Positions 1 to 2,557 of a DNA stretch of 16,119 nucleotides are shown here, piece after piece. The position numbers and the translations under genes were made by a program. Origin of the DNA: a virus (lineage: Duplodnaviria; Heunggongvirae; Uroviricota; Caudoviricetes); IMG/VR virus record IMGVR_UViG_2526164619_000006, positions 1 through 16,119 of that record, one strand, 5' to 3'. Under the pieces are notes generated by a model that did not search any database, had not been told where the DNA came from, and was given only the letters and a program-made list of their open reading frames with translations. Position 1 is the first letter of the stretch. The number at the start of each line of letters is the position of its first letter.

Positions 1-938
1 TCAAATAACCAGCTTAACCCATTCCTGACCTCGAGTATCGTTATAGCGATCGGTGGTTGCCTGGACTTTATGTCCTAGTAATGTTTTTGTATCGATACCC
101 TGTGCACGGTACAGCCGTTCTGATAGAGAGCGTTGTTCATGAAATGTTGGCGGAGTTTTTCCTGCTGGTGAAATTATCCCAGCCAGATCCCGTGCTTTGG
201 CAAAGTAGTCGCTCAGGTTGTCTTTACTCATCGGCTTCGGTTGTTTCTGGTGCCGACTATGGATTAGATATGGACTTAATATTCTGTCTCGGCACCCATC
301 AATAACTTCTTTTAACGTTATCCCAATGGCATCACAGCGTAGTGTAAGCGGTAACGCCAGACGCATTCCGGTTTTTCCCAGGGTGATATGCAAGTGTTCG
401 TTCCACACATCTGAAAAACGCATGTGGCAAATGTCATCACGGCGCTGACCAGTAACAATCGCAAGAAGCATTGCGTTACGGATAAAGTGTTTTTCAGGCG
501 TTGCATTGTAAATTTTTTGCCAGTCTTCCATGGTGAGCCTGGCTCTGGTTACTTTAGGGATCGGTTTACGGGTAGCCTCCGGAGGATTCCATCCAGGAGG
601 AACTTCCCCTGCATGCTGTGCTTCTTTATAAATATCAACCCATAATCCACGATTTACTCTCGCTGTGCTGACCATGTCTTTATCCAGCCACTCATCCAGT
701 ATTAATGCAAAGTCTCTTACTTCCAGTTCTTTCAATGGGTGGTTTCCCAGACGGGAAACCAGGTATGCAGCCATTCGAGTTTTTTCTTTGTGAGTTGTAG
801 CTGCAATATCTCCATTTTTCAGTCGCGTGTCCTGTATTTTCAGATATCGATCAACCCATGCCTTTAATCTGATACCCCGACGTTTTGTTGCTGACGGACT
901 TTCATCAATTTTGCGCATGAAATATTCAGCTTCTGCTG
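1..938 (-). pseudogene. int: Phage tyrosine integrase, C-terminal ~308 codons (gene split by IS4)
   Basis: ORF 1..918 (305 aa) resembles lambda-family integrases. The frame stays open upstream of ATG 918 (..E-Y-F-M-R-K..) to the IS4 junction at 938. Confidence 0.85.
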
Positions 939-2364
939 TAATGCCAGTCAGTTAAGCAACTGACTGGCTCTTTTTCGGGGCTGTGGGGTATTTCCAGGGC
1001 CTCTCCTTTACCACTCTCGGGAAGGCCCTTCCCCTTCTCGTCGGTAATTTCACAAGTTGCCCCATACTTGCAAGATCGCGCATCAGCTCCGGTATACGTC
1101 CCGGTGAAGCGCCCTGCAATGTCATCAGCATTCTCATCACCATTCCGCATGATTCTGAGAAACTCAGTTGATTCGGCCAGTAACCTTTCAGATGTTCCGC
1201 CATTTTAATCATCTGATATCTCACCAGATTATAAGCCAGTAAGACACCCCACAGCTCTTGCTCCACAAGCTCCGGCTTTTTACTTCTCAGCGTCAGCCTG
1301 CTCAGTTGCATCGTCTGTTTTATCTCCCTGTATCCCAGTTCGATTTCCCAGCGATGACTGTACAGATCCGCCATTTCTCCTCCGGGGAAGCGCATGGCGT
1401 CCGTCATCGACGTCAGCAGATGGCAGACTTTTCCTTTGCGCGTCACGGTCAGCAGGCGGGCTGTCACTTCATTTCCCAGTCCCGGCCACTTTTTTCGTGC
1501 CTGCGGGCTGGTTTTCAGCTTCACCAGATGATCGCCTTTACCCAGTTTTCTGAGCTCTTCATATTGCGCTCCCTTTCTGAGAGGTATCATCCAGTGGCGG
1601 TGTTCTCCCGCCAGGCTCCAGGCATTTAACAGTCCCAGTGAGTAATAACCTTTATCCATTAACGTCAGAGTGTTATCGCCGGTTTGTTCTATAAGTTGCT
1701 CAGCAAGCTCATTTTCGCTGTTCTTCATCGTGCCGAAGGCTGCAGCCGTCAGCAGATGGCTGGTCAGTTCCATCTGGCAGACCATTTTGACCTGCGGGTA
1801 GAGCGCCGGGTTCCCGGCATGTGTCTGGCGGGGGAAGGCTGCATCGTTCTCTGGTGTATCCGGTGTGCGCCAGAACACACCATCGATGGCCAGCAGGGTC
1901 AGGCCGCACCAGTGCGAATGCGGCGTGGCGTTATGCCAGAGCTGCGCTGTTTTCGTGAACATGCGGCGAACAGCCTCACTTCCCAGGTGCTGGCGGGCCT
2001 GAATAACGGCACTGGGGGCAACGAAGGGGCGATTGCCCGGCAGCATGATGTCCAGGCGATTCACAATCTGGTGAAGAGGTTCTTTACGCTCAAGCGCCAT
2101 GCCAACAATACACCAGACCATCATTTCGAGGGGAAGACGGCGCTTGCGTAGCGTTACAGTACCTGATTCGGCAAGGCAACGAGAGATGAGTTCGGGGTCG
2201 AGGTAATCCCCCAGAGAAGTCAGTGGGTTACGCAGAGAATCGTAACGGGATACCAGATCAAGAGCCTGTCCAATGTGCATAAAAAAATCCGGAAACAAGT
2301 GAGCGTTTCCGGATTCTTACACAGCCACTGGATCGGTCAACTGATCCTTAACTGATCGGCATTA
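939..2364 (-). mobile_element. IS4, complete copy (1426 bp)
   Basis: Imperfect terminal inverted repeats taatgccagtcagttaagc (939..) and taatgccgatcagttaagg (reverse complement ending 2364). Flanked by a perfect 12-bp direct repeat cagcttctgctg at 927..938 and 2365..2376. Length matches IS4 as I recall it. Confidence 0.9.
952..2298 (-). CDS. insG: IS4 transposase (DDE family)
   Basis: 448-aa ORF matching IS4 transposase from memory ([26 protein letters not shown]..). The true start may be the internal MHIGQ Met. Confidence 0.88.
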
Positions 2365-2557
2365 CAGCTTCTGCTGCAGCTATTCGCTGATTGGCTGTGG
2401 AAGCGATTTTTTCTGCCTTACCTTTGTCTGTTCCGAGTCCGTGAAATTTTCCAGTCACAGGATTTTTATACTGGTAGTAAACTCTGCCAGTTCTGCGATC
2501 AAACTTTTCGTAAAGACCGGCTACGTCAGTGCTGTTTTTTCGTGGCCTCGGTGACAT
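2365..2557 (-). pseudogene. int: Phage integrase, N-terminal 64 codons (upstream part of the IS4-split int)
   Basis: ORF 2348..2557 begins MSPRPRKNSTDVAGLYEKF.. and runs into the IS4 end. By mod-3 arithmetic it is in frame with the 1..938 segment once IS4 and one 12-bp repeat copy are removed, giving a ~372-aa integrase. Confidence 0.8.

Follow-up and report, generated by a model that had tools for sequence, protein, structure and literature searches.

An integrase gene with an insertion sequence lodged inside it raises the question of how the element arrived, whether by a single transposition or by a rearrangement, and of what its arrival meant for the gene and for the prophage that carries it. 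Here, this question is addressed for a stretch of viral DNA of 16,119 nucleotides (the window), in which the interrupted gene lies at one end (Table 1). Positions 1-10918 of the window are 100% identical to contig AKMY01000016.1 of Shigella flexneri K-315, and the window ends within a base of the contig end. The evidence set out below indicates, with a probability of roughly 95%, that the integrase gene of a lambdoid prophage remnant in S. flexneri, located at the 3' end of potB by potC, was split by one IS4 transposition.

Table 1 Features of the interrupted integrase gene, the inserted element and the other insertion sequences in the window
Feature	Position	Strand	Remarks
Integrase 3' part, codons 61 (last two bases) to 372 and stop; core-binding and catalytic domains	1-938	-	99.8% nucleotide identity to L001 12001-12938
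Target-site duplication, left copy, CAGCTTCTGCTG	927-938	.	Single in intact alleles
IS4, 1426 bp	939-2364	-	Same orientation as integrase gene; 18-bp imperfect terminal inverted repeats
IS4 transposase gene, 442 aa from ATG, uninterrupted	952-2280	-	Pfam Nterm_IS4 and DDE_Tnp_1
Target-site duplication, right copy, CAGCTTCTGCTG	2365-2376	.	Exact repeat search
Integrase 5' part, codons 1-64; arm-type DNA-binding domain	2365-2557	-	Pfam Arm-DNA-bind_1
Excisionase gene, 89 aa, overlaps integrase start	2526-2795	-	Pfam Exc 23.0 bits, at cut-off; annotated excisionase in E. coli relatives
IS911, 1248 bp	3512-4759		Duplication CCG; splits exonuclease gene (812 aa in O104:H4)
IS600, 1264 bp	5820-7083		Duplication CAG; orfB appears broken into 55-aa and 159-aa pieces
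IS1, 768 bp	8448-9215		No duplication; flanks ...cacaaaatt and atcagaacg...
IS629	10948-12253		Duplication GCG; ALIL frameshift pseudoknot 11802-11918
Second IS1	15915-16119 (window end)		Truncates DNA methylase gene

The inserted element had been named IS4 in an earlier, sequence-only reading of this DNA, and its length, inverted repeats, transposase domains and alignment to the K-12 copy all confirm that name. The terminal inverted repeats, TAATGCCAGTCAGTTAAG and TAATGCCGATCAGTTAAG, match at 16 of 18 positions and carry the -AATR- end signature, while the transposase matches the Pfam families Nterm_IS4 (1.9e-32) and DDE_Tnp_1 (8e-32). Members of the IS4 subgroup are 1400-1650 bp in size, end in -AATR- and generate direct repeats of 10-13 bp (PMC2266710, size from Table 1 therein), and the element agrees with them in length, end signature, the single DDE ORF and the length of the duplication. 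IS4 of Escherichia coli K-12 (insG, NC_000913.3 4502090-4503515) likewise measures 1426 bp, has the same inverted repeats and a 442-aa DDE transposase, and is flanked by a 12-bp target duplication; the two copies are 99.2% identical and align without gaps, whereas they differ at 11 of 1426 nucleotides, at 7 amino acids relative to InsG and in their insertion site. As far as can be read from the sequence, both the ORF and the ends of the window copy are intact. The closest E. coli IS4 copies are 99.6% identical, and occur in strains in which plasmids of 261-297 kb carry IS4 as well, which fits the distinct IS4 sub-population published as common to Shigella and enteroinvasive E. coli (EIEC) (PMC7373316).

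The mode of insertion can be read from the 12-mer CAGCTTCTGCTG that abuts the element on either side. It is found exactly twice in the window, and the identity between the two copies spans exactly 12 nucleotides without extension in either direction; the probability that such an identity would abut both ends of the element exactly by chance is ~4^-12. When placed on an uninterrupted E. coli allele (L001), the two flanks align to positions 12001-12938 and 12927-14067, and the stretch shared by these two intervals is precisely the 12-mer. The second copy hence arose with the insertion, and the gene by itself has no such repeat. The IS4 DDE transposase would have cut the target CAGCTTCTGCTG with a 12-bp stagger, and repair would have duplicated those 12 bp. 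It could be argued instead that the repeats bound the product of two recombining IS4 copies, or a composite element, as Shigella genomes hold many IS4 copies and show IS-mediated rearrangement (PMC7373316), and one IS4 copy in IMG/VR (L050) has hybrid flanks and lacks a duplication. However, the flanks in the window are collinear with the intact gene, the identical 12-mer stands on both sides, and the element has the exact unit length, gapless against K-12 IS4, which leaves such an origin next to no probability. The 12-bp duplication shows one simple transposition without a later exchange between IS4 copies, since both the duplication and the collinearity of the flanks with the empty site have remained intact. 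Two claims of the sequence-only reading, a 12-bp target duplication and a simple transposition rather than a rearrangement, are thereby upheld, with the 12-mer present twice in the window and once in intact alleles, and no observation speaks against this anatomy.

Other IS4 copies offer a comparison for the site. An exact search of IMG/VR with one IS4 end returned 32 loci, among which 10 were distinct full-length IS4 copies with enough flank. Nine of these 10 other sites have a duplication of 12-14 bp (12 bp at three sites, 13 bp at four, 14 bp at one, and 14 bp with one mismatch at one), and the remaining site has none. In the pattern common to the targets, an A-run stands a few bases left of a duplication that starts with CNNC and ends with GNNG, and the right arm is rich in T; the window site, gaaatatt-CAGCTTCTGCTG-cagctatt, conforms to it. 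A target formula of AAA-N20-TTT has been proposed for IS4; the K-12 site agrees with it in full and the window site at 5 of 6 positions. A literature search returned nothing specific on this formula. In the IMG/VR contigs, the left flank of the L050 copy equals the duplication of another IS4 site (L049), its right flank is unrelated and no duplication is present, so that this copy is evidently, to judge by its flanks, a product of recombination between two IS4 copies. Together, the set of sites assembled here may serve as a small empirical picture of IS4 target preference.

Removing IS4 and one copy of the repeat, that is, joining positions 1-938 to 2377-2557, gives 1119 nucleotides that encode 372 aa and a stop on the minus strand and read ...AAAEAEYFMRKID... 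across the joint. Neither a frameshift nor an internal stop was found in the minus-strand translation of this reconstructed gene, and the single 372-aa frame with its joint came out as the sequence-only reading had proposed. The last base of the integrase stop codon coincides with window position 1. In the reconstructed protein, Pfam Arm-DNA-bind_1 covers residues 1-64 (3.8e-21) and Pfam Phage_integrase residues 194-363 (7.4e-18). The structure of lambda Int is matched with an E-value of 1.9e-53 in an alignment that starts only at query residue 26, and R226, K249, H327, R330, H350 and Y359 align with lambda R212, K235, H308, R311, H333 and Y342. The gene therefore resembles that of bacteriophage lambda integrase (PDB 1z1b, 5j0n) in its arm-binding, core-binding and catalytic domains, in the R-K-H-R-H-Y residues and in the overlap of xis with the start of int. 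It differs from lambda in its attachment site, here the 3' end of potB, and in the split itself, which corresponds in position to about residues 57-61 of lambda Int, close to where the arm-binding domain meets the core-binding domain. Thus, an arm domain, an R-K-H-R-H-Y catalytic domain, an apparently intact excisionase gene next door and a junction between prophage and host are all present, whereas the polypeptide is not continuous from the arm to the catalytic domain owing to the split after codon 64. Judged on these features, the interrupted gene is a disrupted member (pseudogene) of the lambda-type tyrosine integrases rather than a functional integrase.

The empty site can be seen in E. 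coli genomes. A collection of 5426 complete E. coli genomes, from which genomes named Shigella are excluded, was searched with window positions 1-2900; 3969 of the 5426 matched, and the best matches align across an empty site, where the span in the record is 1462 bp, equal to 2900 - 1426 - 12. IS4 at the integrase site was found in none of these 5426 E. coli genomes, which do not include genomes named Shigella. The left junction between IS4 and int was also absent from an exact search of the GTDB representatives, which hold one genome per species and are silent on how rare the junction is; we think the null result arises because Shigella is merged into E. coli there and is represented by another strain. 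In E. coli O104:H4 2009EL-2071, the gene is uninterrupted, annotated as the 372-aa integrase WP_000074983.1 and followed by excisionase and exonuclease genes; both the gene and its place in the chromosome, 166 bp from potC, are those of the interrupted copy. Alignment to intact integrases agrees with the proposed reconstruction, as the reconstructed gene differs from the WP_000074983.1 allele at only 2 nucleotides (2 aa), both nonsynonymous (Q247L and P317S), with no synonymous difference. Five intact alleles are 97-99% identical to the reconstructed gene and all have Q247 and P317, and the reconstructed protein is 99.2% identical to the integrases of E. coli phages vB_EcoS-640R1 and vB_EcoS-813R8. 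Unlike the gene in the window, the integrases of these two phages and WP_000074983.1 are uninterrupted, and their phages or prophage keep genes that are lost or broken here. The same integrase has been hit independently in E. coli WP5-S17-ESBL-10 (NZ_AP022105.1), likewise by an IS4-family element in a simple insertion with a clean duplication, but there the element is the IS10-like ISVsa5, the duplication is 9 bp long and the site is at about codon 135 (L007, about 2215-3542).

The two substitutions allow another reading of the gene, in which the integrase was dead before IS4 arrived, for example through Q247L near the catalytic lysine, so that IS4 hit a pseudogene and changed nothing. Such a history would be in keeping with two nonsynonymous and zero synonymous differences from the closest intact allele, with the absence of L247 and S317 from the five intact alleles, with the absence of the exact reconstructed protein from a collection of about 15 billion proteins, and with the place of residue 247, which lies two before K249 and aligns with lambda Q233, two residues before K235. 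Yet the 372-codon frame is open and has retained the six catalytic residues. Two substitutions do not suffice to separate relaxed selection after the insertion from earlier damage; under neutrality, both changes would be nonsynonymous in about half of such pairs. Prior death of the gene appears rather unlikely. Under inactivation by IS4, Q247L and P317S and the missing exact protein would also fit drift after the event, two changes being too few as proof.

That the insertion is a property of the organism and not of one assembly is evident from its recurrence. Both junctions between IS4 and int are seen in independent assemblies, namely GCA_049894805.1 and several ERR600xxxx runs, in which the contigs on the xis side (L002-L006) enter IS4 by 25-75 nucleotides and those on the potC side (L009-L011) by 26-73 nucleotides, all 100% identical to the window. 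The insertion is therefore real and inherited within a lineage. Misjoining of a repeat in a draft genome might otherwise have placed IS4 in the gene, given that the window comes from a draft contig ending inside an IS1 and that IS copies are classic sites of misassembly, but besides finding both junctions elsewhere, one has to consider that a misjoin would not make a flawless 12-bp repeat out of a sequence that intact alleles contain once. An assembly artefact can thus be regarded as exceedingly improbable.

The position of the prophage in the chromosome could be settled at one of its two ends. The attachment site is outside the window, as the window starts at the integrase stop codon. On the K-315 contig, to the left of position 1, the int stop is followed by 144 nucleotides of phage-type DNA and then by host sequence, with identity to E. 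coli K-12 starting within the last 8 codons of potB, 22 nucleotides before the potC ATG. This junction is the same as that of the O104:H4 lysogen, with 2 mismatches in 400 nucleotides, so the int-proximal junction at the 3' end of potB is intact. The far end of the prophage (attR) lies beyond the window and the contig, as does any second copy of a related integrase. The K-315 contig breaks off in the IS1 with which the window closes, and where the same Q protein occurs in other assemblies, the contigs are short.

While the sequence-only reading took the clean duplication to date the insertion, the duplication gives the mechanism and not a date. What can be said about timing is relative only: the insertion is common to several isolates and predates IS911. 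In ERR6004966 (L002), a single contig holds the IS4 junction and the end of IS600, and in the exonuclease gene between them the IS911 site is empty, window position 4760 being joined to 3511 with the CCG triplet shared. As the IS4 junction occurs on a contig with an empty IS911 site, the IS4 insertion is older than the IS911 insertion. A literature search gave nothing specific on an IS4 insertion in this integrase or on K-315. Scored together with the state of the IS911 site, the IS4 insertion could be used to tell lineages apart within S. flexneri.

The insertion leaves two reading frames in place of one. Upstream, an ORF of 69 aa comprises residues 1-64 (ending in AAAEA) followed by VMPIS and a stop; it runs into IS4 and ends at 2348, and the same hybrid product has been called exactly in other assemblies. 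Downstream, an ORF of 305 aa starts from the ATG at 918 (M68), holds the core-binding and catalytic domains with all catalytic residues, and is annotated in S. flexneri K-315 as the exact product EIQ24477.1. The stop codon of the IS4 transposase (952-954) is in frame with this ATG and 36 nucleotides upstream of it on the minus strand. A terminator scan of the minus strand between this stop and ATG 918 gave no terminator-like site, and the bases upstream of the ATG include no convincing Shine-Dalgarno sequence. As a possible expression signal for the 305-aa ORF, only the promoter-like site of the IS4 transposase, at 2340-2313 on the minus strand, was found, in a scan that was not enriched over shuffled sequences. 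The two ORFs match parts of lambda Int that fold autonomously, the 69-aa ORF being an arm-binding domain and the 305-aa ORF a 'C65-like' fragment with the core-binding and catalytic domains. It could be speculated that the split is not a pure loss and that the 69-aa and 305-aa ORFs have been kept for a function by the lineage, which is considered very improbable. If this were true and the products were made, the arm-binding fragment could, as a decoy, keep related phages from integrating or excising, and translation re-initiating on the IS4 transposase message could yield a recombinase or topoisomerase that lacks the arm domain.

The insertion point, after codon 64, parts the arm-binding domain from the core-binding and catalytic domains. 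In lambda Int, recombination at att requires one protein that bridges arm and core sites. With the split after codon 64, no polypeptide would bridge the two kinds of sites, and integrase function and excision by its product should be lost, as inferred from lambda Int. An open integrase frame would, going by the reconstruction, be regained if IS4 were on rare occasions excised precisely between the two perfect 12-bp copies. The claim that IS4 fixes the prophage in place is reasonable but overdetermined; immobilisation is not attributable to IS4 alone, because the element is a remnant that has been hit several times, with five more IS copies; in addition, a related integrase may rescue excision in trans.

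Whatever the state of int, the prophage is a defective remnant, with six IS copies in 16 kb. Next to the damage caused by the other elements (Table 1), the first IS1 copy lies between dicB-region sequence and a 5'-truncated DUF1627 gene that is without the first ~48 profile positions, where the corresponding interval of the O104:H4 prophage spans about 3.7 kb with repressor, cro-like and cII-like genes that are missing here, so that this IS1 stands in the place expected of the immunity region. Together with the lack of a duplication, this arrangement suggests an IS1-mediated adjacent deletion. Within the remnant, a QueH-type epoxyqueuosine reductase gene (10193-10879; Pfam QueH 1.1e-65) is located between a truncated DUF977 gene and IS629 and has no counterpart at the same position in the O104:H4 prophage. 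A hok/sok toxin-antitoxin locus (12256-12581) starts 3 nucleotides past the end of IS629 at 12253, and consists of an Rfam sok match at 12256-12431 (121.6 bits) and a Hok/Gef ORF at 12369-12581. In E. coli K-12, chromosomal hok loci likewise have IS elements as neighbours.

Damage of this kind by insertion sequences is typical of Shigella genomes. IS1, IS2, IS4, IS600 and IS911 are the five insertion sequences expanded in all Shigella species (PMC7373316), and the case described here, in which IS4 breaks a gene with IS911, IS600 and IS1 within the same 16 kb, does not differ in kind from the pseudogenes that insertion sequences created as they expanded in Shigella (Hawkey et al. 2020, PMC7373316). 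The IS4 event would accordingly be one of many IS hits that degraded the prophage during this expansion, passed on within a lineage. No discussion of this IS4 site in the integrase was found in the literature searched, and the insertion is an ordinary instance of an already known process in a public, annotated genome. It carries little weight beyond annotation, as a textbook case of IS4 target duplication and of prophage erosion by the Shigella IS expansion.
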